Assembly (NCBI GenBank): GCA_964016885.1
Contig: OZ024746.1
Location: 51,832,001 to 51,896,000, forward strand
DNA: 64,000 nucleotides
Direction of reading: 5' to 3'
From: Eledone cirrhosa
Taxonomy: Eukaryota
The stretch's first letter is position 1. Each line of letters opens with the position of its first letter. A program made the translations under genes and the position numbers. The notes beneath the pieces were generated by a model. It ran no database searches. It saw nothing but the letters and a program-made list of their open reading frames with translations, and was not told the DNA's origin. Of this stretch, positions 1,099-41,262 are shown piece by piece.

Positions 1099-1280
1099 GC
1101 ATATATATATATACATAGATATGTACATATATATATATATTACATATAAATAAATATACATATATATATTTACATTTATATATATATATTACATATATAT
1201 AAATATGTGTATATACACACACACGCTTTTCGCTGCAGTGTTTTCTATACCTTTCATTTATATATATATATATATATATA

Positions 1281-1472
1281 ACGAAGGAAATGTGGTAAGG
1301 AACCAGGTGGACCATAACGCACCAAAGTACTCAATACTTGAGGTAGTAGAGTGGGTAATAGGAACCAGTAAGACCCTGACAGCTGAGCTCAAGCCGTTTC
1401 GACGGCTAATTCTGGGTCCAGAATTAGCCGTCGAAACGGCTTGAGCTCAGCTGTCGGGGTCTTACTGGTTCC

Positions 1473-1475
<3 letters not shown>
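1281..1475. mobile_element. Tail+hairpin fold-back element, copy 1, in (TA)n
   Basis: ~77-bp unique segment, then 58-bp inverted arms (1358-1415 / 1418-1475, one T-G mismatch). Homologous copies at 33711 and 41069. Confidence 0.85.
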
Positions 1476-1584: not shown

Positions 1585-1620
<36 letters not shown>

Positions 1621-1624
<4 letters not shown>

Positions 1625-1864
1625 AGTTAATATAAATTAATATATATGATAAACACAAATACCTACATATAAGTGTTTGTATTGTAAATGACTAAGTTAG
1701 CTAACTTACAATAGTCATTTACAATACAAACACTTATATGTTGGTATTGGTGTTTATCATATATATTAATTTATATTAACTTGTATTACACGGCTCAGAA
1801 ATACTTCTTTCTTTGAGCTATTTCATTGTAAAGGACTGTTTGAGTTTAGAACTCGTTATTCATA

Positions 1865-1865
<1 letters not shown>
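1621..1865. mobile_element. Unrelated fold-back element with the same architecture (hairpin + ~80-bp tail) in (TA)n
   Basis: Inverted arms ~1621-1694 / 1712-1785 with few mismatches, then unique 1787-1865. (TA)n on both sides. Confidence 0.75.
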
Positions 1866-5926: not shown

Positions 5927-9949
<4,023 letters not shown>

Positions 9950-10193
9950 TTTTCTTTATTAACCACAAGGGTTCACATAAAGTAGACATTAAGGACAGTA
10001 CAGGACAATACAGGACGGTACAAATGGGCATTTCTGCGTGTAAAAAAAAACAGAGGTTGAAATAAAATAACAAAGAAAAATTCCCCAATAGGGGGGAGAC
10101 TTCCAAGGGACATTTGTGGAGAAAGCCCATTAAAAGACCACAGTGGCCCTGACCACCAGGGCAAGTGCCCTCTCCCAGTTTTCCACCTTTAAT

Positions 10194-13100
10194 TTACAGA
10201 CACATACTCAGAGAAGGCCCATTCATTCGGGCCATACTTGCTTCTCTCACCCATCTTTCAACAAAATGCTGGGAAGAGAGCACTTCCCTCTCTACCCTGA
10301 TTTTCCTTTTCAAATGAAATTTGAAAAAGTTAATCAGGGCATCACCGAAGAGGTAAGTGCTCGTCTTCAGCCCTTTCAAACGTGTCCACCATACTATCTC
10401 TTTCGCCATGGCCACCAGACAGATAAAAACTGCCTGCCCTTCCAGGCTAAAGGAAGGGGGCGGGGCAATCCTCACGATGGACTCAGCTGATAGCTGGATC
10501 CGTCCTACACTTGACAGCAGGTGTTCGACATAAACCCACAAGTCAGCAATGCTCGGACACTGGACGAGTGCGTGCAGGACGGTTTCGTCGCCCTGCGCGC
10601 ATCTCGGACATGTCCGGCTGACGGCACCTCCATGCCTGTAGAGTTTATCCCGAACTGGCAAAGCTCCTCGGTAGCACTGCCAGGCCAGGGATTTCTGGAA
10701 GTTGTCCATAGGCCCCGGCCCGAAAGTCCTTCCGAAGAGATTGGCTAGTTGATTTTCGTCGACGCATAGAGTTTCTCCAAGTACGTCGTCGCTCTTCCCC
10801 TCCACTAATCCCCTATAGAACGCCAAGGTGGAGTTTCCACCGATCACATTGCCCGATTGGTCGAGGGCTGTGAGCGCCTGAAGACATTCCAGTCTCCAAG
10901 CGCTCCCTCTCGGTCTTCGCTTGACCCAGGACTGCAGCTCCGTCAAGGAGACGAGCTGGGGAAAAACGTGTCTTGCAAACGGCGACCACACCTGATCACC
11001 GTCGAGGAAGAGGTGGAGATGTCGTAGCCTGAGCGCGTGTCTGCGCATCATCAGCCACGGCATGCCCAGCCCTCCACGTAGCGGGTGTTGACAGCAGATG
11101 GACCGCCTGACCATCGGAGCGCGTCCCTTCCACAAGAAGCGAAAGAGCAAACGCTCCAGCGCAGTCAGGCGGGGCTTAGGACAAGGTACGACGGTCAGGC
11201 GGTAGTAGATGACGGATGCGATGTACGCATTCGCCACCTCCGCTCGACCTTTCAGGGATAGCTTCCTCTCGGCCCATTTCTGGGTGAGAGAAGCCACCCT
11301 GCTCGTCACCTCGTCCCAGTTTTTGTCCGTCTGGAGGTCTGGACCGAACCAGACCCCTAGCAATTTAACCGGTCCGTCCGTCCAGCGCCCGACGACGCTG
11401 TTGGACGGCATGGACCTGCCTCTCCAGGTGCCGAGCTGCAGGCCCACTGACTTTTCCTGGTTGATCATTGCTCCTGTCACCGCTTCGTATTCTCTTAGTG
11501 TAGTGCCGATCGCCTCGATGTGTTTGGCGTTCGACACCACTACGGTGACATCGTCGGCATATGCTGACACGGATCTTCCGCATCCTAGTTCGCGCGGGAC
11601 CCCCCTCAACGTCTCCAGTTTGTGCAGTAATGGCTCGAGAGTCAATACGTACAATAGGGACGAGAGGGGACATCCTTGGCGGACCGAGCGCATGATGTTG
11701 AACGGTTCCGAAAGGTGACCGTTCACTCTCACTACAGAGCAGATGTCGCTGTGCATGGCAGCGATCCAGCCTCTGAAGACGGGCCCAAAGCCAGCCGTCC
11801 TCAGGACTGCCGCTAGGTAACGATGGTCGACCCTATCGAAGGCTTTCGACTGATCTAAATTTATCAAAGACCCACCCGTGCCAGGTTCCCTAGCTACCCT
11901 CTCTACGATGTATCGCATGAGGTGGAGGTTGTCGTGGATGGATCTGTCGGGAATGGCACATGTCTGTGCCTCTCCCACCAGACCACCAACGACAAGCGCC
12001 AACCTCTTTGCTAGCACCTTGGCCAAAATCTTGAACTCTGTGTTTAGCAGAGTTATGGGCCTAAAATTATCTATGTTATCCCCCTTGTTCGGATCCTTTC
12101 TCAGCAGCGCCACCGCTCCTCGGCTCACAGAGCTGGGAATTCTCCCGTTCTGTTGCCAGTTGCAGTAGACGTCCGCCAAGAGGCCTCCGAACAAGTTTGG
12201 CATTTGTACGTAAAGTTCATAGGGCAGACCATCCAAACCAGGCGATTTACCCCTTGTGCAACTAGTCATTGCATCCCGTACTTCAGCGGTTGTTATCGGC
12301 TTTTCGCAACACTCCGCCTCAGTGGCCGAAAGCCGCGGCAGTCCGTCGAGGTAGACACTAAAGTCCATCCCTCGATCCGGCCCGCCACTGCCCCCGAACA
12401 GTTGAGCGAAGTGTTGCTGAAAAGCTTCACACATTTGCCCGGGATCGAGTAGTATGCGCCCGTCGTGGTCCACCAAAGACCGGATCGTGGCTTTGTTGCC
12501 ACGACGCGCCTCCGCCACTCGGGCCCATTGAACGGCTTTCGACCCCTCGTGTCTGAGAGCACGCACCCTAGCTCTGACAACGCAGCCTTCGTGCTTTGCA
12601 TTGAAGAATTGGTCAAGGGCCAATTTCGCCGCAAGCACGTCGGTCGCGATGCCTTTGCTAAGCGCCTCATCTAATTTTCTAACTAATTCTCCCTCTGCTC
12701 TATTTTTCTCTATTGCTAAAGTCTTACTAAACCTAATGGACTCTATTCTAATTGCTCTTTTCAGAGCAAACCACCACTTGTTGTTGACGATGGCCCCCGT
12801 CAACGCCCGCTTAACTAGTTCGCTAATCCGGTCTCTGTAGGCCTTGCGCGCTGGTAAGGACGCGTTTAACTTCCAGTAGCCGGGTCCTCGTCTATGAAGC
12901 CTATCTAAGTCAAGCACACAGATCACGAATTTGTGGTCCGTGTAGCTGACTATCTTGAATTGTGGACAGCCTATGCTAGACCTATCTATTTCCCTACAAA
13001 ATACTCTATCTAGATATGATCTGGATGACCCTATGCGATTTGTCCAAGTCCACATTGGTACATTCGGGAAATCCATTCGGTACCTGTCAGACAGTTCAAA

Positions 13101-13613
13101 ACGTCTGAGCAGGTTGGTGAGACTCTTGCACCCTCCTTCCCTATCCACTAATCCCACACAATCCCAGCGTGCATCTAAGATCCCGTTCCAGTCGCCCACT
13201 AACACTAAAGAGCGGGACGTTCCAAGAAAGGTCTCCAGACGCCGGAAGAAATCAGGCCGCCCTGCTCCTGTCGGGGCATAGACGGCCACTAACCTGAAAG
13301 CTTGCCCGTCTCCGCTGGTCACGTCCAGCGCCACCAACTTACCTTCTGGGTCCAGGAAGATGGCCCGTATGGCAAGATCCAAACCTCTCCGAAAAAGCAC
13401 AGCAACTCCTCCCCCCGATCCCGGACGGCTGGGAGATGCGTACACATCGTAGCCGCCGAAGATCGGAGCGAAAGCCTGTGCTTCGGAGATTCTGGTCTCG
13501 CTGATGGCCACTACATCTATGTTTAGTGACCTGAGGTCGTTGAGCAGGTGGCCCTGCTTCCATGACGACCCCAAGCCACGCGCATTTATGCTGCCTATTC
13601 TGAGTGAGGTCAT
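10194..13613 (-). CDS. Tx1-type ORF2: APE endonuclease, reverse transcriptase, C-terminal CCHC
   Basis: 1139 aa: SINARGL, SETR, VYAP, GDWN, YLDR, TDH (EN); KSPGLDG, FRPITLLN, DQSKAFDRV, RQGCPLS, YADD (RT); CPRC..ETVLHALVQC. Confidence 0.96.
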   Translation of the reverse strand: MTSLRIGSINARGLGSSWKQGHLLNDLRSLNIDVVAISETRISEAQAFAPIFGGYDVYASPSRPGSGGGVAVLFRRGLDLAIRAIFLDPEGKLVALDVTSGDGQAFRLVAVYAPTGAGRPDFFRRLETFLGTSRSLVLVGDWNGILDARWDCVGLVDREGGCKSLTNLLRRFELSDRYRMDFPNVPMWTWTNRIGSSRSYLDRVFCREIDRSSIGCPQFKIVSYTDHKFVICVLDLDRLHRRGPGYWKLNASLPARKAYRDRISELVKRALTGAIVNNKWWFALKRAIRIESIRFSKTLAIEKNRAEGELVRKLDEALSKGIATDVLAAKLALDQFFNAKHEGCVVRARVRALRHEGSKAVQWARVAEARRGNKATIRSLVDHDGRILLDPGQMCEAFQQHFAQLFGGSGGPDRGMDFSVYLDGLPRLSATEAECCEKPITTAEVRDAMTSCTRGKSPGLDGLPYELYVQMPNLFGGLLADVYCNWQQNGRIPSSVSRGAVALLRKDPNKGDNIDNFRPITLLNTEFKILAKVLAKRLALVVGGLVGEAQTCAIPDRSIHDNLHLMRYIVERVAREPGTGGSLINLDQSKAFDRVDHRYLAAVLRTAGFGPVFRGWIAAMHSDICSVVRVNGHLSEPFNIMRSVRQGCPLSSLLYVLTLEPLLHKLETLRGVPRELGCGRSVSAYADDVTVVVSNAKHIEAIGTTLREYEAVTGAMINQEKSVGLQLGTWRGRSMPSNSVVGRWTDGPVKLLGVWFGPDLQTDKNWDEVTSRVASLTQKWAERKLSLKGRAEVANAYIASVIYYRLTVVPCPKPRLTALERLLFRFLWKGRAPMVRRSICCQHPLRGGLGMPWLMMRRHALRLRHLHLFLDGDQVWSPFARHVFPQLVSLTELQSWVKRRPRGSAWRLECLQALTALDQSGNVIGGNSTLAFYRGLVEGKSDDVLGETLCVDENQLANLFGRTFGPGPMDNFQKSLAWQCYRGALPVRDKLYRHGGAVSRTCPRCAQGDETVLHALVQCPSIADLWVYVEHLLSSVGRIQLSAESIVRIAPPPSFSLEGQAVFICLVAMAKEIVWWTRLKGLKTSTYLFGDALINFFKFHLKRKIRVEREVLSSQHFVERWVREASMARMNGPSLSMCL

Positions 13614-13647
13614 GTTGAAAAGGAGTGGAAAAGATGGGAAAGACCAC

Positions 13648-15096
13648 TTACCTTACTTCTCGTAGGGGAAGGACGGCTTTTCCATCCTTTTCACTGCTTA
13701 TGGCCTCCTCAGGAAGGATGTCCTTATAAATCCTCCTGGAGAGTGCTTGTCGGAAGTCTCCGATGTCTTTGGGGAATTTTTGTTTTAGTGTCATGTACGT
13801 TTTCTGTGTGATGCGAGTGATTTGTATGTGTGGAGGTGGTGTGAATTTTGGGGTTGTTGTGTAGTCTTTTTCTGTGATGCTGGTGTTGTGTTGGATGTAG
13901 TGTAATAATTGCTTGTTGTTCAAATTTAATGCTGTGTAGTGTGTATCGTTTTGGTTGTTTTGTTTTGTTTGCGTTTGTTGTGGGTTTGTTTCTGTTTCGT
14001 ATTTTGGTGACTTTTGTGGTGTAGGTGATGGTGGTGCTGGGGATAATGATGGTGATGGTGTTGGTGTTTGGGTTGATGGGGTTGGTGATGCTGGTGTGGA
14101 TGGTGGCATATCTGTCCTAACTTTTTTGTTTCTTAGTTTATTTGTTTCCCTCTGTATTTTGTTTTTGGAGGGGGAAGGAAGAGAATTTTTTCTTTTTTGG
14201 TTTCTTTTTTTTTTTCCGGATATCGTTTCCCACTCCTCGTCGTCACAATCTGTCTCCAGTTGTGATAGGCCGGGGAGTGGAAAATCCTCCACAGCCGTTA
14301 GTTTTGGTTGTGGTGTGGTGGATGGTGTAGGCGCTGGTGCTTGTTCTGAAGCGTTGGGTGGTGGTGGTGTTGGTTTTGCTGGTGGTGGTAGTGGTGTTGG
14401 TTTTGCTACTGTTGCTGGGGTTGTTGCTGTTATAGTTGCTTCTGTTGTTGCTGCTACAGTTGTTGCTGGCATCTCTGCTACTGGTGGTGTTGATGGTTGT
14501 GTCACTGGGGTGGGTAGGAGAGGTGGCCTCAACCTTTTAGCCTGAGGGCAGAAAGCCCTTAGGTGGGTTCCTTCACCACAAACGACACACCTAGGTCTTC
14601 TGCCCTCGACAATTACCGTGAGGTGGCTGCCGTCAGTGAGGTCTATTACCTCTGGGATCTCCTCAATGCTTTTTTGGTCCGCTTGGATCAGGAGCTCCAT
14701 CCCAGATCCGGACCAGTTTTCCTGCTTTTCTTTTGCTATTGTTATTATTTTCGTGTTGGCCTCGATGCCGGCGATGACAGCCGCTATTAGCCAGGGAATT
14801 TCGATGGCCGGTGGAACGTGGGTCACCCTGATCTTTACGAGTCTCTGGCCACAATAGCTTGGGACGAGTGTGAAGTCGTCACTTTTTAATGGGGCCATGG
14901 AGTGTTCTCTAGCCTCCTCTGGTGTTTCAAAGAACACATCCACGGTTCCATACTTTTGCCCACGTCTGATGTGGGTTTTTCTTGCCCACACATGTCCCAA
15001 AGCTTTTTGGATTTGGGACTCGGATGCCCGTTCCACTCGGCGCGATTTTACATTTATTGTTCTATACGACACGGTGCACAGGCGCCGATGCTCCAT
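13648..15096 (-). CDS. Tx1-type ORF1 (gag-like, zinc knuckle, Pro/Thr-rich tail)
   Basis: 482 aa with CVVCGEGTHLRAFC (CX2CX4HX4C) directly upstream of ORF2. Confidence 0.85.
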   Translation of the reverse strand: MEHRRLCTVSYRTINVKSRRVERASESQIQKALGHVWARKTHIRRGQKYGTVDVFFETPEEAREHSMAPLKSDDFTLVPSYCGQRLVKIRVTHVPPAIEIPWLIAAVIAGIEANTKIITIAKEKQENWSGSGMELLIQADQKSIEEIPEVIDLTDGSHLTVIVEGRRPRCVVCGEGTHLRAFCPQAKRLRPPLLPTPVTQPSTPPVAEMPATTVAATTEATITATTPATVAKPTPLPPPAKPTPPPPNASEQAPAPTPSTTPQPKLTAVEDFPLPGLSQLETDCDDEEWETISGKKKRNQKRKNSLPSPSKNKIQRETNKLRNKKVRTDMPPSTPASPTPSTQTPTPSPSLSPAPPSPTPQKSPKYETETNPQQTQTKQNNQNDTHYTALNLNNKQLLHYIQHNTSITEKDYTTTPKFTPPPHIQITRITQKTYMTLKQKFPKDIGDFRQALSRRIYKDILPEEAISSEKDGKAVLPLREVR

Positions 15097-15855: not shown

Positions 15856-15909
<54 letters not shown>

Positions 15910-15910
<1 letters not shown>

Positions 15911-18900
15911 GAAGAAGAAGAACCCCCCCCTCCTCTCCTCTGGCTACACTATATAGGACAGCGAAACTCACCAACACCAGAAACTAGATACACCACCCAC
16001 CCCATCATCTGTGTACACTAAACACAACAGCATTTTCACCTTCACCGCCACCGCTCACTACGGCCATCATTACCACCACTATCCCATCACCGCCGCCACC
16101 ACCCCCTGACTCCTTCACTGCTGCTGCCACCGCTACAGCACCATCACTACAGTAATACGGTCGCATCACCGCCACCACTGCCTCGGTATCGACATCACCA
16201 CCACCACTGTCTCAGTATCGCCAACGCCGCCAGTCTCTGCTGGCTACCACTTCCACATTATAGAATTCCTACTACTAACAAAGAGGAAGGCATCAAAATA
16301 TATAGATAGACTCAAAAGAAAAAAGAAAAAACAAACAACAAAAGCAGCACAGCAACAACAGTAAAAAACGAGAAAAACAGAGAAAAACAAAAACAAAAAA
16401 AGAAACCCCAAAAACGTAAAGAAAATAAGAATGAAGAGAGAAGCAGGCGGACGGACAGAGAAGAGGGGGGAAAAAGTAAAACTTAAAAAACAAAAACTAA
16501 GTCAGACATTCGAATACTACATTACAATGAAACTTATGCTTATTCATTTTTGGGGCCCTTTCTGCCCGTGTGTTTGTTTGTTTATGTGTGTCCGTATACA
16601 GCGTGGTGATAATGCCACACAAGGGCCAGGTGGGATGGCGGATCCACAGATGGCTATGTAAACATACATTCGCCAATCCTCGATAAGAGTGTTTAAATAT
16701 CGAACATAAACAGTTCGAATAACGGTGAAATGGAGACTAGAACGTCATGTGACAGACTCTCACCCAACAGGTGCCCCCTGGCTCAGCAGCAGGAACCTGA
16801 CTGTCAACCAAATACTGCTGATGTTGGAGGAAGAAGAAGAAGGAAAGGGGCCAGAACCAACTGGACGAAAGAATTGAATAGAACTGTTATGCAATGCTAC
16901 CTGAAAAGTAACCCCAAGGAGAGGGGCTACAGGAGACGGATGCATAACATCTGGAACGAGATTGGTTTATTTAAATTAGATGAACAAAAATTGGCCGGGC
17001 AGGCTCGGGTAATAAGAACTAATGGGTGGATAAGCGAGCTGGAACTGGAGGAAGTGAGCAGAGAGAATGGCTTGGAGATGGCGGGTGTAGTATGCCAGAC
17101 AAGCGAGCCGGCGGGAAATGAAGGTGAGGAGGTCCTGAGAACGGAGGAACCACCCGAAGCAGACAATGATCTGAATACTGAGATAAATAATACCTGGAAC
17201 AGAGATACGGCCACTGAGGAGATGAATGCTGACGGGCTAGGACAAGATTCGGTTGACATCCTAAATTTAGTGGTAGATGAGTTGAACAATGATAGTGGGA
17301 GACCTATGAACCTAAGATTTGTAGACAGGAAAAAGTTAAAAGAAACAACAGCTAAGGTAAACAAAGTCATCCCATACCTTGAGGCGAGGAGTCTTCACCA
17401 GTGCAACAATATCCTCAAAGCAACAGCAAATACGGTGAGGAAACTACTTGGTATAAAAGCGAGAGGAAACAACAGACAAGAAAGAGCAGAGCCGTGGTGG
17501 AAGAAGCGACTGAGTGGGCAAATCGGGGAAATGAGAAATGACATAGGAAAGCTTGAGTCACTACTGAATGGGACACTAAAAAACATAGGCACTAAAAATA
17601 GACTGGAAATAAAATACAAAACTAGGAGTAAAAAGCTAAATATTATCATAGAGGAATTGAAGCAACGCATTGTAGCAAAGAGTGCCAAAATCAGGCGATA
17701 CGAGAACAGAGTCAGTCAGTATAAACAGAACCGCATGTTCGACAACAACCAGAAGATGCTGTTTGGACAGCTTGAGGGGAAAGAAAGAGGCAACGACTTG
17801 ATCCCTGGGGCGGAACAAGCTAAAACATTCTGGAGAGGAATATGGGAGCAGGATGTTAGACACAATGCCCAGGCAGGGTGGATTGAGACAGTACAGAGGG
17901 AGATCGGTGAGCAGGCACAGCAACAGACTGATTTGAGTATCACAGTTGAAACTCTTAAGGGGCAAGCCAAAAAACTAACCAACTGGAAATCACCAGGCCC
18001 AGATGGTGTGCAGGGGTATTGGATTAAACATTTAACATCCCTCCACCCGAAGCTGACGGCCATGTTCAATGACTGCTTGGTGTCGGGTGAGGTGCCAGAG
18101 TGGTTGACAAAAGGTACCACAGTTCTGATAATGAAAGACCGAATCAAGGGTAATGATGTTACCAACTATAGACCTATCACATGTCTGCCCGTAATGTGGA
18201 AACTGTTGACGAGCATTGTGTCTGAGGAAATCTACCATCACCTCCACACAAACAACTTGTTGCCGGACGAACAGAAAGGATGCCGAAAGAAGTCACGTGG
18301 TACAAAGGACCAGTTGCTTATTGATAAGATGGTAATGGGGAATTGCAGGAGGAGACACACTGATCTTGCCATGGGATGGATAGACTACAGAAAGGCATTT
18401 GACATGGTGCCTCATTCCTGGATCACCAAAAGCCTGGAGATCTTCAGGGTGGCAGATAACATCAGACAGTTGCTGGGCAGGAGTATGGGGTCCTGGGAGA
18501 CAGAGTTGACATCAACTGGAGTATCCTTGGGAAGCGTGAAGATCAAGAGAGGTATCTTCCAGGGAGATAGCCTGTCCCCTCTGTTGTTTGTCCTTGCCCT
18601 GATGCCCTTGACCATTATGCTGCGAAAAGTGAGAGCAGGATACAAGTTGGGAAGGGGAGAGCTTACCATCAATCACCTCCTCTTCATGGACGATCTTAAG
18701 CTCTTCGGGAAGAGTGAGAAGGAGTTGGATGTGCTTGTTGACACTGTCCGTATTTTCAGCAGTGATATATGTATGCAGTTTGGTATTGGTAAATGTGGAG
18801 TCATTGTGATGAGGAGGGGTAGGTTGAGCAGAAGTAACGGGATCCAGATACCAACAGGTGAGATGATAAAGGAAATTGACTCTGAGGAAGGATACAAGTA

Positions 18901-20197
18901 TTTGGGCGTTCTGGAGGCTGATGGCATAAAGAACAAAAAAATGAAGGAATTGTTAAGAACTGAATACATTCGGAGAGTAAGGAGCGTATTGAAGTCACAT
19001 CTGAACAGCAGAAATGCCATAAGCGCAGTAAATTCCCGAGCTGTGTCTATTATTAGGTACAGTGCGGGAATTCTGAGATGGAATGTTGCTGAACAAAAAG
19101 AAATGGATAGGAAGACTAGGAAGCTATTGACTATCTACAACATGTTCCACAAGAGGAGTGATGTCGATAGACTCTACCTAAGGAGATCTGAGGGTGGAAG
19201 AGGTCTTATCAGCATAGAGGACTGTGTTCAGATGGAGAAAAACAACCTATACAAATACGTGACCTATAGTAAGGAGCCAATGCTCAGAGCTGTACTGAAG
19301 GAGGGGACAGTAGGCCAGGGGATACCCAAGGAGGAAATAACATCAAGGAGGAAGAGCAGCCTTAAGGGAAAATCCCTTCATAGTACCTTCTTTGAGAAAA
19401 CTGAATTTAGAGATCCACAGACATGGAACTGGTTGAGAAGAGGAGACCTCAAAAAGGCTACAGAAGGAATGCTAATGGCTGCGCAGGAGCAGGCCCTCAA
19501 AACGAAGTGGTTGAAGCACCATATCTACAAGGAGGAGGCTAGCCCACTGTGCAGGATCTGTGGAGAGAGAGAGGAGACTGTGGCTCACATTGTGTCCGAG
19601 TGTAAACACCTAGCCCAGACCCACTATAAGGGCTGGAGACACGATGTGATGGGCAGGGTGATCCACTGGCACCTGTGCAAAGTAAACAATCTACCACATT
19701 CTGAGAAATGGTATGAGCATAGGCCAGAGGCGGTGATGGAGAACAGTCAGGTGAAGGTGCTGTGGGATTTTAGGATACAGACGGACAAAAAACTGGAACA
19801 CAATAGACCTGATCTGGTGGTTGTGGACAAAGAAAAAAGATCGTGCCTGATTGTGGATGTGGCCTGCCCGTTCGACACGAGAGTGCAAGAGAAGGAGAGG
19901 GAGAAAATTAACCGATACCAGGACCTAAAGTGGGAGGTGAAAAGGATTTGGAACTGCCATGAAGTCAAAGTGATCCCGATTGTCATAGGCGCACTGGGGA
20001 CTATCTCCAAAGGTTTCCAGGGATGGTTAAAGAAAATCGGCCCCTTCACGCTTTTTGGAACGCTTCAAAAGGCATGCTTGCTTGGAACGGCAAGAACCCT
20101 CCGATACGTCCTGAATATCTGAGGCTGCAGGTAGTGGCTTGATATTCAATCCAACGGACTTTCCAGTTAACCAACATCAATGACTGAGATTCAAGGA
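15910..20197 (+). mobile_element. R4/Dong-clade element family A, copy 1 (intact ORF, leader 5'-truncated)
   Basis: Between (AAT)n tracts; single ORF with RT and REL endonuclease; ~75-bp 3' UTR. Confidence 0.92.
16730..20122 (+). CDS. Dong/R4 RT + CCHC + restriction-like endonuclease, 1130 aa
   Basis: [37 protein letters not shown]...HIVSEC, RHD, RPDLVVVD...DVACPFD, EKINRY. Confidence 0.96.
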   Translation: METRTSCDRLSPNRCPLAQQQEPDCQPNTADVGGRRRRKGARTNWTKELNRTVMQCYLKSNPKERGYRRRMHNIWNEIGLFKLDEQKLAGQARVIRTNGWISELELEEVSRENGLEMAGVVCQTSEPAGNEGEEVLRTEEPPEADNDLNTEINNTWNRDTATEEMNADGLGQDSVDILNLVVDELNNDSGRPMNLRFVDRKKLKETTAKVNKVIPYLEARSLHQCNNILKATANTVRKLLGIKARGNNRQERAEPWWKKRLSGQIGEMRNDIGKLESLLNGTLKNIGTKNRLEIKYKTRSKKLNIIIEELKQRIVAKSAKIRRYENRVSQYKQNRMFDNNQKMLFGQLEGKERGNDLIPGAEQAKTFWRGIWEQDVRHNAQAGWIETVQREIGEQAQQQTDLSITVETLKGQAKKLTNWKSPGPDGVQGYWIKHLTSLHPKLTAMFNDCLVSGEVPEWLTKGTTVLIMKDRIKGNDVTNYRPITCLPVMWKLLTSIVSEEIYHHLHTNNLLPDEQKGCRKKSRGTKDQLLIDKMVMGNCRRRHTDLAMGWIDYRKAFDMVPHSWITKSLEIFRVADNIRQLLGRSMGSWETELTSTGVSLGSVKIKRGIFQGDSLSPLLFVLALMPLTIMLRKVRAGYKLGRGELTINHLLFMDDLKLFGKSEKELDVLVDTVRIFSSDICMQFGIGKCGVIVMRRGRLSRSNGIQIPTGEMIKEIDSEEGYKYLGVLEADGIKNKKMKELLRTEYIRRVRSVLKSHLNSRNAISAVNSRAVSIIRYSAGILRWNVAEQKEMDRKTRKLLTIYNMFHKRSDVDRLYLRRSEGGRGLISIEDCVQMEKNNLYKYVTYSKEPMLRAVLKEGTVGQGIPKEEITSRRKSSLKGKSLHSTFFEKTEFRDPQTWNWLRRGDLKKATEGMLMAAQEQALKTKWLKHHIYKEEASPLCRICGEREETVAHIVSECKHLAQTHYKGWRHDVMGRVIHWHLCKVNNLPHSEKWYEHRPEAVMENSQVKVLWDFRIQTDKKLEHNRPDLVVVDKEKRSCLIVDVACPFDTRVQEKEREKINRYQDLKWEVKRIWNCHEVKVIPIVIGALGTISKGFQGWLKKIGPFTLFGTLQKACLLGTARTLRYVLNI

Positions 20198-20202
20198 ATA
20201 AC

Positions 20203-20251
<49 letters not shown>

Positions 20252-20252
<1 letters not shown>

Positions 20253-23200
20253 GGGAAGAAGACGCACGAGGTGACGGAGGTCATGAAATCGCTCCCGTAA
20301 GTTTTGAATTTTTAACATATTTAAATCATTTGTGAAATAACAACTCTTAGTACAAATGCTACGTAAAGCACCCGGCTTGAGCCCCAAAAAAATTCGGACC
20401 CAAAATATATTGTTATAAGGCTCAAATATTCAAATATTCAACTTTGTATTGTACACTGTATATCCCCCAAAAAATGGCTATAAATGGAAGAAGAAGAACC
20501 CCCCCCCCCTCCTCTCCTCTGGCTACACTATATAGGACAGCTAAACTCACCAACACCAGAAACTAGATACACCACCCACCCCATCATCTGTGTACACTAA
20601 ACACAACAGCATTTTCACCTTCACCGCCACCGCTCACTACGGCCATCATTACCACCACTATCCCATCACCGCCGCCACCACCCCTTGACTCCTTCACTGC
20701 TGCTGCCACCGCTACAGCACCATCACTACAGTAATACGGCTCAAATATTCAAATATTCAACTTTGTATTGTACACTGTATATCCAAAAAAAAATAAAATG
20801 GCTATAAATGGAAGAAGAAGAACCCCCCCCCCCTCCTCTTTTCTGGCTACACTATATAGGACAGCGAAACTCACCAACACCAGAAACTAGATACACCACC
20901 CACCCCATCATCTGTGTACACTAAACACAACAGCATTTTCACCTTCACCGCCACCGCTCACTACGGCCATCATTACCACCACTATCCCATCACCGCCGCC
21001 ACCACCCCCTGACTCCTTCACTGCTGCTGCCACCGCTACAGCACCATCACTACAGTAATACGGTCGCATCACCGCCACCACTGCCTCGGTATCGACATCA
21101 CCACCACCACTGTCTCAGTATCGCCAACGCCGCCAGTCTCTGCTGGCTACCACTTCCACATTATAGAATTCCTACTACTAACAAAGAGGAAGGCATCAAA
21201 ATATATAGATAGACTCAAAAGAAAAAAGAAAAAACAAACAACAAAAGCAGCACAGCAACAACAGTAAAAAACGAGAAAAACAGAGAAAAACAAAAACAAA
21301 AAAAGAAACCCCAAAAACGTAAAGAAAATAAGAATGAAGAGAGAAGCAGGCGGACGGACAGAGAAGAGGGGGGAAAAAGTAAAACTTAAAAAACAAAAAC
21401 TAAGTCAGACATTCGAATACTACATTACAATGAAACTTATGCTTATTCATTTTTGGGGCCCTTTCTGCCCGTGTGTTTGTTTGTTTATGTGTGTCCGTAT
21501 ACAGCGTGGTGATAATGCCACACAAGGGCCAGGTGGGATGGCGGATCCACAGATGGCTATGTAAACATACATTCGCCAATCCTCGATAAGAGTGTTTAAA
21601 TATCGAACATAAACAGTTCGAATAACGGTGAAATGGAGACTAGAACGTCATGTGACAGACTCTCACCCAACAGGTGCCCCCTGGCTCAGCAGCAGGAACC
21701 TGACTGTCAACCAAATACTGCTGATGTTGGAGGAAGAAGAAGAAGGAAAGGGGCCAGAACCAACTGGACGAAAGAATTGAATAGAACTGTTATGCAATGC
21801 TACCTGAAAAGTAACCCCAAGGAGAGGGGCTACAGGAGACGGATGCATAACATCTGGGACGAGATTGGTTTATTTAAATTAGATGAACAAAAATTGGCCG
21901 GGCAGGCTCGGGTAATAAGAACTAATGGGTGGATAAGCGAGCTGGAACTGGAGGAAGTGAGCAGAGAGAATGGCTTGGAGATGGCGGGTGTAGTATGCCA
22001 GACAAGCGAGCCGGCGGGAAATGAAGGTGAGGAGGTCCTGAGAACGGAGGAACCACCCGAAGCAGACAATGATCTGAATACTGAGATAAATAATACCTGG
22101 AACAGAGATACGGCCACTGAGGAGATGAATGCTGACGGGCTAGGACAAGATTCGGTTGACATCCTAAATTTAGTGGTAGATGAGTTGAACAATGATAGTG
22201 GGAGACCTATGAACCTAAGATTTGTAGACAGGAAAAAGTTAAAAGAAACAACAGCTAAGGTAAACAAAGTCATCCCATACCTTGAGGCGAGGAGTCTTCA
22301 CCAGTGCAACAATATCCTCAAAGCAACAGCAAATACGGTGAGGAAACTACTTGGTATAAAAGCGAGAGGAAACAACAGACAAGAAAGAGCAGAGCCGTGG
22401 TGGAAGAAGCGACTGAGTGGGCAAATCGGGGAAATGAGAAATGACATAGGAAAGCTTGAGTCACTACTGAATGGGACACTAAAAAACATAGGCACTAAAA
22501 ATAGACTGGAAATAAAATACAAAACTAGGAGTAAAAAGCTAAATATTATCATAGAGGAATTGAAGCAACGCATTGTAGCAAAGAGTGCCAAAATCAGGCG
22601 ATACGAGAACAGAGTCAGTCAGTATAAACAGAACCGCATGTTCGACAACAACCAGAAGATGCTGTTTGGACAGCTTGAGGGGAAAGAAAGAGGCAACGAC
22701 TTGATCCCTGGGGCGGAACAAGCTAAAACATTCTGGAGAGGAATATGGGAGCAGGATGTTAGACACAATGCCCAGGCAGGGTGGATTGAGACAGTACAGA
22801 GGGAGATCGGTGAGCAGGCACAGCAACAGACTGATTTGAGTATCACAGTTGAAACTCTTAAGGGGCAAGCCAAAAAACTAACCAACTGGAAATCACCAGG
22901 CCCAGATGGTGTGCAGGGGTATTGGATTAAACATTTAACATCCCTCCACCCGAAGCTGACGGCCATGTTCAATGACTGCTTGGTGTCGGGTGAGGTGCCA
23001 GAGTGGTTGACAAAAGGTACCACAGTTCTGATAATGAAAGACCGAATCAAGGGTAATGATGTTACCAACTATAGACCTATCACATGTCTGCCCGTAATGT
23101 GGAAACTGTTGACGAGCATTGTGTCTGAGGAAATCTACCATCACCTCCACACAAACAACTTGTTGCCGGACGAACAGAAAGGATGCCGAAAGAAGTCACG

Positions 23201-25100
23201 TGGTACAAAGGACCAGTTGCTTATTGATAAGATGGTAATGGGGAATTGCAGGAGGAGACACACTGATCTTGCCATGGGATGGATAGACTACAGAAAGGCA
23301 TTTGACATGGTGCCTCATTCCTGGATCACCAAAAGCCTGGAGATCTTCAGGGTGGCAGATAACATCAGACAGTTGCTGGGCAGGAGTATGGGGTCCTGGG
23401 AGACAGAGTTGACATCAACTGGAGTATCCTTGGGAAGCGTGAAGATCAAGAGAGGTATCTTCCAGGGAGATAGCCTGTCCCCTCTGTTGTTTGTCCTTGC
23501 CCTGATGCCCTTGACCATTATGCTGCGAAAAGTGAGAGCAGGATACAAGTTGGGAAGGGGAGAGCTTACCATCAATCACCTCCTCTTCATGGACGATCTT
23601 AAGCTCTTCGGGAAGAGTGAGAAGGAGTTGGATGTGCTTGTTGACACTGTCCGTATTTTCAGCAGTGATATATGTATGCAGTTTGGTATTGGTAAATGTG
23701 GAGTCATTGTGATGAGGAGGGGTAGGTTGAGCAGAAGTAACGGGATCCAGATACCAACAGGTGAGATGATAAAGGAAATTGACTCTGAGGAAGGATACAA
23801 GTATTTGGGCGTTCTGGAGGCTGATGGCATAAAGAACAAAAAAATGAAGGAATTGTTAAGAACTGAATACATTCGGAGAGTAAGGAGCGTATTGAAGTCA
23901 CATCTGAACAGCAGAAATGCCATAAGCGCAGTAAATTCCCGAGCTGTGTCTATTATTAGGTACAGTGCGGGAATTCTGAGATGGAATGTTGCTGAACAAA
24001 AAGAAATGGATAGGAAGACTAGGAAGCTATTGACTATCTACAACATGTTCCACAAGAGGAGTGATGTCGATAGACTCTACCTAAGGAGATCTGAGGGTGG
24101 AAGAGGTCTTATCAGCATAGAGGACTGTGTTCAGATGGAGAAAAACAACCTATACAAATACGTGACCTATAGTAAGGAGCCAATGCTCAGAGCTGTACTG
24201 AAGGAGGGGACAGTAGGCCAGGGGATACCCAAGGAGGAAATAACATCAAGGAGGAAGAGCAGCCTTAAGGGAAAATCCCTTCATAGTACCTTCTTTGAGA
24301 AAACTGAATTTAGAGATCCACAGACATGGAACTGGTTGAGAAGAGGAGACCTCAAAAAGGCTACAGAAGGAATGCTAATGGCTGCGCAGGAGCAGGCCCT
24401 CAAAACGAAGTGGTTGAAGCACCATATCTACAAGGAGGAGGCTAGCCCACTGTGCAGGATCTGTGGAGAGAGAGAGGAGACTGTGGCTCACATTGTGTCC
24501 GAGTGTAAACACCTAGCCCAGACCCACTATAAGGGCTGGAGACACGATGTGATGGGCAGGGTGATCCACTGGCACCTGTGCAAAGTAAACAATCTACCAC
24601 ATTCTGAGAAATGGTATGAGCATAGGCCAGAGGCGGTGATGGAGAACAGTCAGGTGAAGGTGCTGTGGGATTTTAGGATACAGACGGACAAAAAACTGGA
24701 ACACAATAGACCTGACCTGGTGGTTGTGGACAAAGAAAAAAGATCGTGCCTGATTGTGGATGTGGCCTGCCCGTTCGACACGAGAGTGCAAGAGAAGGAG
24801 AGGGAGAAAATTAACCGATACCAGGACCTAAAGTGGGAGGTGAAAAGGATTTGGAACTGCCATGAAGTCAAAGTGATCCCGATTGTCATAGGCGCACTGG
24901 GGACTATCTCCAAAGGTTTCCAGGGATGGTTAAAGAAAATCGGCCCCTTCACGCTTTTTGGAACGCTTCAAAAGGCATGCTTGCTTGGAACGGCAAGAAC
25001 CCTCCGATACGTCCTGAATATCTGAGGCTGCAGGTAGTGGCTTGATATTCAATCCAACGGACTTTCCAGTTAACCAACATCAATGACTGAGATTCAAGGA
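20252..25100 (+). mobile_element. R4/Dong family A, copy 2 (longest leader, intact ORF)
   Basis: Repeat of copy 1 at offset 4903, with extra 5' sequence 20252-20809 including a ~320-bp tandem duplication. Confidence 0.92.
21633..25025 (+). CDS. Dong/R4 RT-REL protein, 1130 aa
   Basis: Matches 16730-20122 except one visible N/D change (HNIWN vs HNIWD). Confidence 0.96.
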   Translation: METRTSCDRLSPNRCPLAQQQEPDCQPNTADVGGRRRRKGARTNWTKELNRTVMQCYLKSNPKERGYRRRMHNIWDEIGLFKLDEQKLAGQARVIRTNGWISELELEEVSRENGLEMAGVVCQTSEPAGNEGEEVLRTEEPPEADNDLNTEINNTWNRDTATEEMNADGLGQDSVDILNLVVDELNNDSGRPMNLRFVDRKKLKETTAKVNKVIPYLEARSLHQCNNILKATANTVRKLLGIKARGNNRQERAEPWWKKRLSGQIGEMRNDIGKLESLLNGTLKNIGTKNRLEIKYKTRSKKLNIIIEELKQRIVAKSAKIRRYENRVSQYKQNRMFDNNQKMLFGQLEGKERGNDLIPGAEQAKTFWRGIWEQDVRHNAQAGWIETVQREIGEQAQQQTDLSITVETLKGQAKKLTNWKSPGPDGVQGYWIKHLTSLHPKLTAMFNDCLVSGEVPEWLTKGTTVLIMKDRIKGNDVTNYRPITCLPVMWKLLTSIVSEEIYHHLHTNNLLPDEQKGCRKKSRGTKDQLLIDKMVMGNCRRRHTDLAMGWIDYRKAFDMVPHSWITKSLEIFRVADNIRQLLGRSMGSWETELTSTGVSLGSVKIKRGIFQGDSLSPLLFVLALMPLTIMLRKVRAGYKLGRGELTINHLLFMDDLKLFGKSEKELDVLVDTVRIFSSDICMQFGIGKCGVIVMRRGRLSRSNGIQIPTGEMIKEIDSEEGYKYLGVLEADGIKNKKMKELLRTEYIRRVRSVLKSHLNSRNAISAVNSRAVSIIRYSAGILRWNVAEQKEMDRKTRKLLTIYNMFHKRSDVDRLYLRRSEGGRGLISIEDCVQMEKNNLYKYVTYSKEPMLRAVLKEGTVGQGIPKEEITSRRKSSLKGKSLHSTFFEKTEFRDPQTWNWLRRGDLKKATEGMLMAAQEQALKTKWLKHHIYKEEASPLCRICGEREETVAHIVSECKHLAQTHYKGWRHDVMGRVIHWHLCKVNNLPHSEKWYEHRPEAVMENSQVKVLWDFRIQTDKKLEHNRPDLVVVDKEKRSCLIVDVACPFDTRVQEKEREKINRYQDLKWEVKRIWNCHEVKVIPIVIGALGTISKGFQGWLKKIGPFTLFGTLQKACLLGTARTLRYVLNI

Positions 25101-25130
25101 ATAACAATAACAATAATAATAATAATAATA

Positions 25131-28100
25131 AAAAAAAAACAACAAAAAGAAAACCCCGTGACCAAGAAATACCGGGATGGCGGCCGGCGGGGAATAGCCA
25201 TGTCTCTGGGGTAGAACGACCCCTCTAGTCTTGGTTGACACTCGTTCTAGAAGTGGTAACACGAAATGATTACCCCTTGGCGGATAAGGATAAAACGCGA
25301 CAAAATAAAGTAAATGTCTAATGATAAAATCTCATACCGGATCGGCCGTCACCCGGGTAAAAAAGGGCCGCGTCCTTCAGAGAGGAACCAGACTGGGGTC
25401 GAAAAATCAGCTAATGGTTCAAACCTTCCCATCACTTCGGAGCTGGAGACCTCCCATAACCGGAATACTCCTACTGTTGGCCCTCCATGCTCACCACCAA
25501 GAAATCCAAAGAAAAAGAGAGAAAAATGGTCAAGGGAAGATAATAAAGAAGTCCTTGAGGCTTTCTACACTGCCATGTACTACCCATCAAATACATCGAA
25601 TACAGAACAAACATATATCAACTGGAAAATAAAACATCCCGAAAACAGAGGCTATATTGACAGTAACAAACTAGCCAATATACGAAGAAATATTGTAAGA
25701 AAAAAGTTACTAACTGATATAGAAATTGATCAGATCAAGCTAGTAGCACAAAGTCAGCGAAGGGAAAATGAAGCATGTGTCAGTGAAAACGAGGTAAACT
25801 GTAACACTTCGAATCCCAGGGTTGGGGCGGAATCACTGGCAACAGAACAAATTAAAGAAAGGAGCGAAAAAGTGGAGGGAGTGCATGCTCAGGATGAAAC
25901 TCCAAATGAAAATAATGAGATCGTAAATGATAAAGAAATGAATGAGAATGAACTTGCCAACTTGAATGATGAAATTATGATCGAATGGATGAAAATGAAA
26001 GAATCTGACATGGGGCAACGAGACACCCTCCCTAAGATCCAGAACTCCAAACAGGACCAAAAGATAATACACAAGACTAACATAATTCTCAAAAACATTA
26101 TCATCACAAACTAAACATTACTGACTTAAATCATCTCTATTATGCATCGGCTAAAGTCACCACTCACTTATGTGGAGTGAAGATGAAAAAACAAAGGAAT
26201 TCCCACAAGAAATCTACTTGGCAAGATAACATCAATCGCCAAATAAACCTTCTCCGATCTGACATAGAAATTTTAACAAACTATAAAGTAGGTGAACATG
26301 TTAAACAAACTAAACTTAGAAAATTGAAAAAAAAGTACAGTATAAGATCAACATGTGACATATACATGCTGATAGAAACAATCAAGCAAAAAGTGTCGGC
26401 CAAAGCTGCTCGTATAAGGCGCTTTGAAAAACGATCTAGATTCTATAAGGACAATAATATGTTCAAAAACAACCAAAGAAACTTCTACAGAAAAATTGGT
26501 AAGTCAACAATAACTGCTAAATCAATACCACCCAAGGAGGAAGTGTAAGAATTCTGGGAAAAGATCTGGGCCGAAGAAAAAGTTCATAACATACATGCCC
26601 CATGGATAGACAGACAAATGAAAGAAACAGCTCACCTTGAAGAACAAACATGGGAAAATATAACAGTTGAACAGCTGCGCTTGGCTCTAAGAAAAACCAG
26701 CAAATGGAAATCCCCAGGAAAAGACAAAATACAAAACTTTTGGATAAATGCCTTCACAGAGTCTCATGAGCTGTTAGCCCAACTTTACAATGAAATAGTT
26801 AAGGAGCCAGAAAAGATACCATCATGGCTAGTTAACGGCATTACATTCCTGCTACTGAAGAATGATGAGACAAACAATCCCAAAAATTACAGACTGATAA
26901 CCTGCTTGACCACAATGTATAAAATTTTAACATCAGTCCTAACTGAATACACATATGACCACCTGATAACAAATGACCTATTTCCCATTGAGCAGAAAGG
27001 GTGTAAACGAGGCTCATATGGCTGTAAGGATCAGCTTCTGGTTAACAAAATGATACTGGAAGATTGTCATAATAGACACAAAAATCTATCGATTGCTTGG
27101 ATAGATTATAAAAAAGCATTCGATAGTTTGCCACACAGTTGGATTGAAAAATGTTTAGAGATTTTCAAAATATCCCCCGTTGTCAGGAGGTTTTTGTCAT
27201 TCAGTATGAGGACATGGAGAACGACACTCCTTTTGAATAGTGAAACAAAATCACTGGAAGCTGGAGAAGTTAACATTAATTGTGGAATTTTTCAGGGTGA
27301 CTCTTTATCACCGCTTTTATTCTGCATCGCACTTATACCATTAAGTAAAATGCTCAATGAAACAAAACATGGATATAGAGTCTATGACAAAACCATTAAT
27401 CACCTGTTCTACATGGATGACCTGAAACTATTTGCAAAAAATGATGAACAATTGCAAGGGCTATTATCCACTGTGAAGCAGTTCAGTGATGACATTAAAA
27501 TGGAGTTTGGACTGGATAAATGCGCCAAAGCAACGTTCACCAGAGGAAAGCTGCTGAAGAGTTCAGACATTAATCTTGATCGGGGGATCGTGATAAGAGA
27601 GCTTGATCAAGAAAAAACTTACAAATATCTAGGTGTTTGTGAAGGAGACGGAATCAAGCACTCGACAATGAGGGAAAGGATAAGGAAGGAATGTTACCGC
27701 AGAGTCAGAGCAATCTTAAGAACGGAATTGAATGCAAGGAATAGGATCGATGCCATAAACACGCTTGCCATACCAGTAGTAACCTACAGTTACAATGTCA
27801 TCAACTGGTCAAGCACAGAGATCCGTAGGCTCGATACAAAAATCCGAAAATTCTTAACCATGCACAGAATGCATCACCCTAAGGCAGACATAGATAGAAT
27901 ATATCTCCCTAGGAAAGAAGGAGGACGTGGGTTATTCCAGTTAGACATTGCGTTGAAAACTGCAACAATTGGATTATCGACATATCTAAGGGAATCACAT
28001 GATTGGATGATCAAACTCGTTTTGAAACACGAAAGCACCAAAAGATCATATTCCATTACAAAAGATGCACAAAGGTACAGTAATGGACTACAAATTTCAA

Positions 28101-29100
28101 AAGTCCCATTTACTGCTGAAATGGAAAACACAGAAAAAGCAAAGCAGGTAAAAGTAACTGCAAAGAAAGAACTGCTACAGAAACTGGCTAAGAAATGGCA
28201 AGAAAAGCCTCTGTATGGAAAATACCCAGAGCGAGCTAACAATCCTGATGTTGACAAAACTTTAACCCATCAGTGGTTGGCATCCTCTGGACTGAAATCG
28301 GAGACTGAAGGACTGATTATATCAGCACAAAATCAGTGTCTGCCAACAAAAAATTACCAAGCCAACATAATAAAAAATGGGTGCAGCCCATTATGCCGTG
28401 TATGCAAAAAACAACCAGAGACCATTGACCATATAATTTCAATGTGCAGTCCTATAGCTCCAACCGAATACCTAAACAGGCATGACAGAGCTGCACAATA
28501 CATACATTGGATAATGTGTAAGCATTTTGACCTGCCCCATCAAAAGAATTGGTGGCAGCATCAACCACCTCCCATACTTGAAAAAGATCACATCTCAATC
28601 TTGTGGAACTTTAGCATCCAAACAGACCGAAAAATAGATGCAAATAGACCTGATATAATATTGAAGGACTTTCAAAGGAGGGTATGCCTGCTAATTGATA
28701 TGTCTGTTCCAATAAACAAGAATGTATCTATAAAAACATTTGAAAAATTGAGCAAGTATAAGGACCTGGAGATAGAAATTGGAAACATGTGGAAATTGAG
28801 AACTAAAACAATATCAGTGGTTGTAGGCGCTCTGGGAATGATACCTAAGGGGTCTAACGACTACTTATCGCAAATCCCAGGAAACCCGCGTATAGGAGAA
28901 ATACAAAAGATAGTACTAATGGGATCTGCCCATATACTAAGGAAGATCCTGTCAATATAAGTACATCACAAGTCTAAACACTAAGGATGCATGTGTGAAT
29001 ATGTATGTTCTTTCTTGAACATGGCGGACCTTGTTGTCTCTTGAGGTCACTGGTTGTGACTTGGTGATAACTCGTATGAACATAAAGCAAGATAAATGCA
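25131..29100 (+). pseudogene. R4/Dong family B, full length but disrupted
   Basis: ORF pieces 25314-26114, 26177-26548 and 26618-28960 (YMDD, CRVC..HIISMC, RHD, RPDIILKD). Frameshift near 26110 and stop at 26546-26548. AT-rich and diverged from family A; ends in (AAT)n. Confidence 0.9.
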
Positions 29101-29120
29101 AATAATAATAATAATAATAA

Positions 29121-31248: not shown

Positions 31249-31250
<2 letters not shown>
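29121..31250 (+). pseudogene. Dong family A copy 3, 5'-truncated with stop (29728-29730) and frameshift (~31010)
   Basis: Matches family A from CAATGACTGCTTGG onward with scattered substitutions; same 3' UTR + (AAT)n. Confidence 0.92.
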
Positions 31251-31298
<48 letters not shown>

Positions 31299-31305
31299 GT
31301 AATAA

Positions 31306-32524: not shown

Positions 32525-32563
32525 AATAACAATAACAATAATAATAATAATAATAATAATAAT

Positions 32564-32812: not shown

Positions 32813-32854
<42 letters not shown>

Positions 32855-32858
<4 letters not shown>

Positions 32859-33629: not shown

Positions 33630-33633
<4 letters not shown>
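32855..33633. mobile_element. Element with ~140-bp direct repeats plus 42-bp inverted segment, in (TA)n (Penelope-pLTR-like geometry)
   Basis: 32855-32996 is nearly identical to 33448-33589; 33019-33060 is the reverse complement of 33592-33633. Confidence 0.7.
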
Positions 33634-33710
<77 letters not shown>

Positions 33711-33713
<3 letters not shown>

Positions 33714-33926
33714 AAGAGGGTGTGGTAAGATATCAGGTGGACCATAACGCACCAGAATACTCAATACTTACGGTAGTTGAGTGGGTAATAGGAAAAGAGT
33801 CAGGACCCCGACGGCTGAGCTCCAGCCGTTTCGACATCTAGATCCGAACAATTTTCATATCCTTGTTCGGATCTAGATGTCGAAATGGCTGCAGCTCAGC
33901 CGTCGGGGTCCTGACTCTTTTCCTAT
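33711..33926. mobile_element. Tail+hairpin fold-back element, copy 2
   Basis: Same ~77-bp segment as 1281; arms 33788-33851 / 33863-33926 (2 mismatches), 11-nt loop. Confidence 0.85.
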
Positions 33927-36154: not shown

Positions 36155-36215
<61 letters not shown>

Positions 36216-36340
36216 AAAGTTCTATTTAAAGTTGTTGGGATACAAGTAAATATTTTTATAACTTATATAAAGCACTCGACAATTTTTTGGAGTAGATATA
36301 CGATATTAATAAATGGAAACTATATTTATAAAACCATATT

Positions 36341-36405
36341 TATTTCATTATACATATTTCAGGGATACCACATTAAATTATGGTATGCCTTCATCAGACA
36401 AAATA
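36341..36405 (-). ncRNA. Minimal type I hammerhead ribozyme (Penelope pLTR type)
   Basis: Minus strand: TATTTTGT-CTGATGA-AGGCATACCATA-ATTTAA-TGTGGTATCCCT-GAAA-T-ATGT-A-TA-ATGAAATA. Intact core; stem I 8 bp (2 GU), long stem II, 2-bp stem III, AUA cleavage triplet. Confidence 0.75.
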
Positions 36406-41068: not shown

Positions 41069-41262
41069 ACAAAGGAATTGTGGTAAGGAACCAGATGGAC
41101 CATAACGCACCAGAGTACTCAATACGTAGGGTAGTAGAGTGGGAAATAGGAAAAAGTATGACCCCGACGGCAGATCTCAAGCCGTTTCGACGGCTATTTC
41201 TGCACTCAGAAATAGCCGTCGAAACGGCTTGAGCTCTGCCGTCGGGGTCATACTTTTTCCTA
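41069..41262. mobile_element. Tail+hairpin fold-back element, copy 3
   Basis: Arms 41147-41202 / 41207-41262 (1 mismatch), loop CACT; same unique segment as 1281 and 33711. Confidence 0.85.

Follow-up and report, generated by a model that had tools for sequence, protein, structure and literature searches.

In the 64,000-nucleotide window of Eledone cirrhosa DNA analysed here (contig OZ024746.1, positions 51,832,001 to 51,896,000 of the forward strand), short hairpins with a tail on one side lie in TA microsatellites, and the question raised by them is how the two arms of a palindrome can match within a copy when they differ from copy to copy. An earlier note, made from the letters of the window, had proposed that the second arm is synthesised anew by fold-back at each insertion of an extremely truncated Penelope-like element (PLE), and had named selected hairpin-RNA loci as the alternative. 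Here the architecture of the copies, the divergence of their arms, their relatives in public reads and their structural motifs were analysed and compared with the known systems.

Architecture and arm divergence of the hairpin copies

Three copies of 195-216 bases each were recovered at 1281..1475, 33711-33926 and 41069-41262, in the same orientation throughout, and blastn with each copy as query returned no fourth copy in the window. TA runs flank both sides in all three, as had been described. The tail, given earlier as about 77 bp, is indeed single-copy and of conserved length, its size being 78 nt in all three copies when counted from TAGGAA (77 if the boundary A/T pair is assigned to the arm); it is present on one side only and its ends are fixed. 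The arms, counted from the same letters, are 57, 63 and 56 bp long in copies 1, 2 and 3 with 1, 2 and 1 mismatches, and an inverted 5′-truncated copy is joined head to head in 3/3 copies. The loops vary as reported, being GT in copy 1, TTTTCATATCC in copy 2 and CACT in copy 3. The GTTTCG...CGAAA pair, which had been regarded as retained, is present, but it is simply arm sequence and its own mirror. The coordinates of all features are collected in Table 1.

Table 1. Positions in the window of the parts of the three hairpin copies and of two elements with a related tail
Feature	Position	Strand	Remarks
Copy 1, tail-side (TA)n flank	1259..1280		second TA run 1475-1500
Copy 1, single-copy tail	1281..1358	-	element 3′ end
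Copy 1, bulged tail hairpin	1329..1352	-	RCTC-stem-loop-stem-2 nt-GAGY
Copy 1, tail-bearing arm	1359..1415	-	57 bp
Copy 1, tail-less arm	1416..1474	+	includes 2-nt loop GT, agreeing with the parent strand in reads
Copy 1, hammerhead-like 3′ half	1432..1461	+	C-GAAA, 5-6 bp stem III, GTC, then GGGGTC; minus-strand mirror from 1401
Unrelated hairpin and tail element in (TA)n	1620..1865	+	75-bp arms, 17-nt loop, ~79-nt tail, bulged hairpin 1793-1818
Copy 2, tail	33711..33788	-	tail hairpin in alternative fold register
Copy 2, tail-bearing arm	33789..33851	-	63 bp
Copy 2, loop and tail-less arm	33852..33925	+	11-nt loop; AA/TT 2-nt overlap at turn
Complete canonical type I hammerhead and tail	36213..36405	-	hammerhead 36405-36341, bulged hairpin 36293-36274, ends at (TA)n
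Copy 3, tail	41069..41146	-	bulged hairpin 41117-41140
Copy 3, tail-bearing arm and loop	41147..41206	-	56 bp; 4-nt loop CACT, probably of the same arm
Copy 3, tail-less arm	41207..41262	+	56 bp

The comparison of the arms bears out the observation from which the question started, since the mismatch within a copy is 4 of 176 pairs (2.3%) against 58 of 338 positions (17%) between copies (Fisher p ~2e-6, for pairwise comparisons that are non-independent); the tails differ between copies at 34 of 234 positions (15%). The substitutions which separate the copies are mirrored identically on both arms at 11 of 14, 6 of 8 and 8 of 11 sites, the indels are mirrored too, and no arm mismatch is common to two copies. 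We propose that the arms match within a copy because one template was common to both, and that the divergence from copy to copy stems from different source subfamilies.

Mirrored substitutions in a very stable hairpin could also be read as selected hairpin-RNA loci (siRNA, miRNA or ADAR substrates) in which complementarity is kept by selection. The predicted fold of copy 1 has an energy of -124.1 kcal/mol (z -18) and none of 200 shuffles was as stable; the whole tails fold like shuffles (z -1.3 to +0.2 in 8 folds). Against this reading, near-complete mirroring including indels is obtained more simply by copying than by compensatory mutation at each locus, and the family is a dispersed and abundant repeat in microsatellites. 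In the Rfam search of positions 1-50000 of the window, 0 of 55 matches reached the gathering score, the best over the copies being mir-127 with 32.9 against 60 and mir-90 with 32.6 against 68. We give hardly any credence to selection for a hairpin RNA; transcribed copies may be edited incidentally.

The copies are also short, abundant and non-coding and carry inverted repeats, which would suit a MITE, a fold-back DNA transposon or an HUH (Helitron/Helentron/Replitron) derivative targeting TA repeats, with the hairpin serving as a protein-binding or replication signal. The ends were compared with the definitions given in the available parts of PMC8969392 and PMC10288648. As regards a MITE or other TIR element, the inverted repeat leaves one end of the element unbounded, this end being a 78-nt unpaired single-copy tail, and direct terminal repeats are absent. 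For Helitron/Helentron ends the available text of PMC8969392 gives a 5′ TC, a 3′ CTRR and a short subterminal hairpin, or alternatively TIRs that are short and asymmetric; the copies here have no 5′ TC, their arms end in CTAT, CTAT and CTAA (CTRR in 1/3) and the hairpin is 56-63 bp. Any target-site duplication is unreadable because the insertions lie inside (TA)n. The variable centre, the longer parent and the tail motif common to a complete hammerhead element, which are given below, also speak against this whole group of origins, and we regard it as very improbable.

Parent sequence and turns in public reads

Words of the family were found in 14 of the 24 sequencing runs listed, from 10 studies, and alignment was done for four of them (X24, X1, X4 and X6), runs with small shares being left aside; no RNA run is on the list and the reads have no bearing on expression. 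The alignment retained 23,632 of 12,467,656 RAD reads of X24, 16,630 contigs of X1, 42 records in X4 and 2 in X6, totals which are not copy numbers and in which 301 X24 reads fit two places. The family is abundant in public reads.

Variant shares in X24 mirror between the arms, in a match at population level and not per copy. Among the 40 entries listed, 1366C>A was read in 2902 of 6734 against 1467G>T in 1993 of 4349 (43/46%), 1366C>G in 2573 of 6734 against 1467G>C in 1522 of 4349 (38/35%), 1371A>G in 2571 of 6654 against 1462T>C in 1614 of 4477 (39/36%), 1371A>T in 1841 of 6654 against 1462T>A in 1247 of 4477 (28/28%), the 1381 variant in 5500 of 6429 against 3924 of 4890 at 1452 (86/80%), and the 1384 variant in 2265 of 6309 against 1469 of 4873 at 1449 (36/30%). 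The mirrored shares show a few arm haplotypes, which correspond to subfamilies.

Loose ends before 1416 were found in all four runs aligned (107, 613, 1 and 1 records), with the same terminal letters in all, and 979 X24 reads run on behind 1415 with the mirror of those letters. It follows that the parent extends past the centre of copy 1 (AATTTA|GTCCAG) and that many copies, whose reads run past this centre into parent sequence, turn elsewhere than copy 1. The read-end peaks at 1411 and 1422 were dropped as a biological signal, as both coincide with AATT, the restriction cut of the RAD library.

These haplotypes have to be weighed as a sign of a pre-formed non-autonomous mini-element, in which tail and hairpin are transcribed together and copied whole by a PLE enzyme, the arms having been made once per subfamily master or re-matched by arm-to-arm conversion. 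The small number of haplotypes favours it (1366G in 2573 and 1371G in 2571 reads, and 2506 reads and 158 contigs with an arm like that of copy 2, among the entries listed), as do a centre variant 2 nt shorter which recurs in 22 contigs, the recurrence of position 1416 as a junction and the similar arm lengths in the window. On the other side, the three copies have three different loops with no arm mismatch in common, and X24 reads passing the centre mostly enter the parent, 979 loose ends behind 1415 standing against ~110 reads aligned across 1415-1416, a count that is biased because the AATT restriction cut removes most copy-1-like reads there. The earlier note had held that subfamilies with identical pre-formed hairpins and symmetric ends would contradict its proposal; haplotypes are present, but identical hairpins and symmetric ends are absent, and we consider copying of a ready-made hairpin unlikely.

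The origin of each loop was then assigned by comparison with the parent, on a small sample (n=3 copies) in which the parent is only partly visible for copies 2 and 3. Compared with the parent in reads, copy 1 has its GT loop on the tail-less arm, which is 2 nt longer with an overlap of 0. In copy 2 the loop has AATTTTCAT in common with a parent-side loose end of X6 in the tail-less orientation, the arm being 11 nt longer and the overlap at the turn 2 nt. For copy 3 the loop CACT is probably derived from the tail-bearing arm, with one substitution, a length greater by 4 nt and an overlap of 0.

These assignments divide the fold-back proposal. Synthesis of the second arm at each insertion is supported. 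Simple fold-back of a single cDNA primed at the tail is disfavoured because it predicts a loop always on the tail-bearing arm and a tail-less arm never reaching beyond its template; since the loop is of the tail-less arm in two of the three copies, two cDNAs from two start sites are likelier. The turn overlaps of 0, 2 and 0 nt give little backing for self-priming. For the inverted ends and one-sided tails of PLEs, self-priming is proposed in the available text of PMC3846280, and two start sites are shown in that of PMC11167929, where the later steps are unvalidated.

Lopsided forms were also seen. Of 15 joints listed, 8 link a shortened tail side (end 1318-1380) to the full tail-less arm from 1416; even the best asymmetric joints are rare in raw X24 reads, being supported by 27, 24 and 11 reads with 5, 2 and 3 different starts. 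Rare reads also hold the tail-less arm in full but hardly any of the tail-side arm, or none of it. The asymmetric joints could be later deletions or library chimeras.

Hammerhead-like half and bulged tail hairpin

If the tail is taken as the 3′ end, all six arms hold C-GAAA, a 5-6-bp stem and GTC, as in the 3′ half of type I hammerheads. Such a half occurred in 24, 12 and 56 of 5000 shuffles, its descriptor gave 11 matches in the window of which 6 lie within these arms, and, folded by themselves, the arms with this half are no more stable than shuffles. Neither a CTGANGA nor a TTGANAA core was found in any copy or in the 30 loose letters visible upstream in the reads; therefore no copy is a complete ribozyme, and because no 5′ core was found the half-hammerhead may be a decayed or a chance motif. 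A stricter hammerhead descriptor missed the ribozyme at 36.4 kb because its stem II is bulged. The view that stem II of the hammerhead forms the tip of the hairpin in every copy was dropped, as the loops differ and the parent beside the turn is without a core. A fourth hairpin was observed at 37436-37500, with 24-bp arms and a 17-nt loop resembling the hammerhead 3′ half, and with no core or bulged tail hairpin adjoining.

The tail itself carries a small hairpin of the form RCTC-stem-loop-stem-2 nt-GAGY, which sits 6 nt past the arm end. The strict descriptor for it, composed after the sequences had been viewed, matched 5 times in 49.7 kb, where shuffles gave a mean of 0.29 (maximum 2 in 100). 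The matches are in copies 1 and 3, in the tail of element 1620-1865, in the tail behind the complete hammerhead and at a stray site (83-101), and all but the stray one are followed by a TA run at a distance of 47-61 nt. The inner stems of the four tail hairpins differ in sequence and their pairing is kept. The tail of copy 2 misses the strict descriptor, but folds in another register. A relaxed descriptor gave 22 window matches and still missed copy 2, so that only the strict form is informative.

The two other elements with this tail motif were inspected further. Element 1620-1865 has 2 arm mismatches, a loop overlapping a 14-nt perfect palindrome, and its bulged hairpin 7 nt past the arm end. 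The complete hammerhead at 36405-36341, of a kind found in 0 of 40 shuffles, has an 8-bp stem I and a tail of ~130 nt, and no inverted arm was seen beside it.

By eye, the same bulged hairpin is present at the 3′ end of Hydra-2_Amil and, with a TA bulge, of Hydra-2_Ajap in the available part of the PMC8557442 supplement; there Hydra-1_Crog has a looser hairpin and Hydra-1_Amil, Hydra-1_Obim and Hydra-1_Ajap have none, which gives 2-3 of 6 consensi. It is conceivable, and we advance it tentatively, that the RCTC-stem-2-nt-bulge-GAGY hairpin is a conserved RNA signal docking a TA-targeting Penelope enzyme, a dimer of which would prime two cDNAs that flank the hairpin, one per cut strand, so that every insertion would be born as a two-armed palindrome.

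The proposal of an extremely truncated Penelope-like 3′ end has thus gained support from the longer parent and varied turns in reads, from the hammerhead 3′ half and from the tail hairpin that is also found with a complete hammerhead. No link to a PLE open reading frame was found, which the earlier note had named as a further observation against its proposal. In the 17 scanned of the 55 window ORFs of at least 120 aa, the domains found were limited to RVT_1, AP-endonuclease and zf-RVT, and GIY-YIG was absent. Truncated PLE copies would be without an RT/GIY-YIG ORF anyway. Scans of metagenome contigs (two scans), viral contigs and prokaryote genomes with the family pattern gave 0 matches each, as expected for an animal repeat.

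Proposed insertion mechanism and related elements

Taking the above together, each copy is in our judgement quite probably a very short insertion of a Penelope-like 3′ end, the arms of which were probably made in one event from one template. In the mechanism that we propose, the GIY-YIG nuclease of the element would cut both strands of the TA repeat, and its reverse transcriptase would start cDNA one at the tail end and cDNA two 78 nt upstream, at the TA which is the fixed outer arm end, so that the two start sites would bracket the conserved bulged hairpin. Both cDNAs would stall ~55-75 nt beyond the second start and would be joined head to head, either through end-joining or through copy-back from one or the other 3′ end with later annealing to the second cDNA. 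What we infer in this scheme is the PLE enzyme, the pair of start sites and the way in which the cDNAs are joined. The arms differ in length by 2, 11 and 4 nt and are near-equal in 3/3 copies, which is unexpected for independently truncated cDNAs without an extra step. We propose that copy-back with such annealing would account for arms of nearly the same length and for loops from either side, and direct end-joining for the lopsided forms.

The hairpin and tail family likely works like a Penelope 3′-end insertion unit. Formal membership in the PLEs, and in the Hydra clade especially, is unproven because no parent ORF was reached.

The comparison with known systems draws on the available parts of the papers cited. 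Craig et al. (PMC8557442) describe for PLEs an inverted 5′-truncated copy and a 30-40-bp tail at one end, and Arkhipova et al. (PMC3846280) describe palindromes at head-to-head PLE junctions, for which self-priming was proposed. In the account of Cervera and de la Pena (PMC4209133) the hammerheads from truncated PLEs are mostly single, and close opposite-strand pairs occur as well. According to Frangieh et al. (PMC11167929), the Anolis PLE protein nicks and extends both strands and its two start sites bracket the tail. Penelope-like elements make up 6.83% of the Octopus vulgaris assembly (PMC13282606).

Like the EN+ PLE insertion units of PMC8557442 and PMC3846280, the copies have head-to-head inverted 3′ copies, a one-sided tail and palindromic junctions, and their microsatellite targets mask any target duplication. 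Unlike those units, the insert here is ~200 nt long, is without an ORF or direct pLTR and has its hammerhead reduced to the 3′ half; the tail is 78 nt against 30-40 nt (PMC8557442).

The (TA)n target is shared with the Hydra-clade PLEs (PMC8557442), six consensi of which are listed as (TA)n-targeting in its supplement, and in these the hammerhead, as the hammerhead-like half here, lies near the 3′ end and is followed by a short 3′ region. The (TA)n preference is found also in Naiads and is not diagnostic of the Hydra clade. At the protein level the clade is characterised by the motifs RWK and DKT and by the absence of CCHH (PMC8557442). Stem III is 5-6 bp with a loop of 7-9 nt here, against 3-4 bp and 1-3 nt in the Hydra-clade PLEs, and Hydra-1_Obim has a different end without the bulged hairpin (PMC8557442). 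The family motifs gave no relevant sequence match in the available part of the PMC8557442 supplement and no entry in that of PMC13282606, which comes without the O. vulgaris repeat library.

The Poseidon element PAc of Anolis carolinensis (PMC11167929) is comparable with the mechanism proposed here in that its tail is set by two RT start sites at a stem-loop and both strands are cut and extended, and its targets are likewise AT-rich. It differs in that the data are in vitro and from another clade, the tail lies inside the ORF start and the joining of inverted arms is unexplained. The non-LTR retrozymes (bioRxiv 10.64898/2026.07.22.740005; see also PMC7229834) are likewise short, non-coding, PLE-related and hammerhead-associated, but they are described as head-to-tail tandem repeats with complete type I hammerheads, whereas the copies here are single head-to-head hairpins with no core, and identity with retrozymes, which are defined by such tandem units, was rejected.

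No published account of this hairpin and tail family or of the tail hairpin was found in the openly accessible papers searched; Repbase, Dfam, the O. vulgaris repeat library, subscription papers or preprint supplements may contain one. The architecture is already described for PLEs, and the family represents a known insertion pattern and not a new system; the gain is therefore incremental. As a minimal and abundant family of two-armed inserts it provides many natural junctions by which the models of PLE end formation can be separated, and the shared tail hairpin is a candidate recognition signal. If the docking and double-priming reading is true, the octopod mini-hairpins would record the reaction, and loop origins and arm lengths would test how the inverted ends of Penelope arise. 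For annotation there is a risk that such hairpins could be mislabelled as MITEs or miRNAs.

Several other features of the window were recorded. Beside copy 2, positions 32850-33638 hold an insert of ~790 bp between two TA runs, in which a direct repeat of 145 bp (32852-32996 and 33445-33589, at 98.6%) is accompanied by inverted arms of 46 bp at 33015-33060 and 33593-33638. On visual inspection the minus strand near 33095-33175 shows a hammerhead variant, with TTGATAA as its core and a long stem II, which the descriptor did not return. The insert looks like a non-coding PLE partial tandem. A 221-bp inverted repeat (40004-40223 and 40755-40975), 99% complementary with a 531-nt AT-rich spacer, ends just before the microsatellite of copy 3.

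Tandem non-LTR copies, 97-99.7% identical and with a 1141-aa RT ORF and a period of ~4.9 kb, followed by nested partial copies, occupy 15907-32563. On the minus strand, positions 6788-13652 hold adjoining AP-endonuclease/RT LINE copies which are 74% alike and include one open 1152-aa ORF. The best named relative of a window LINE ORF is from Argonauta hians, with 73% identity. At the end of the window, from 49870 to 64000, an 86-bp satellite is repeated in an array of 154 copies or more, and the strands of this array are extremely skewed (GC skew ~0.82).
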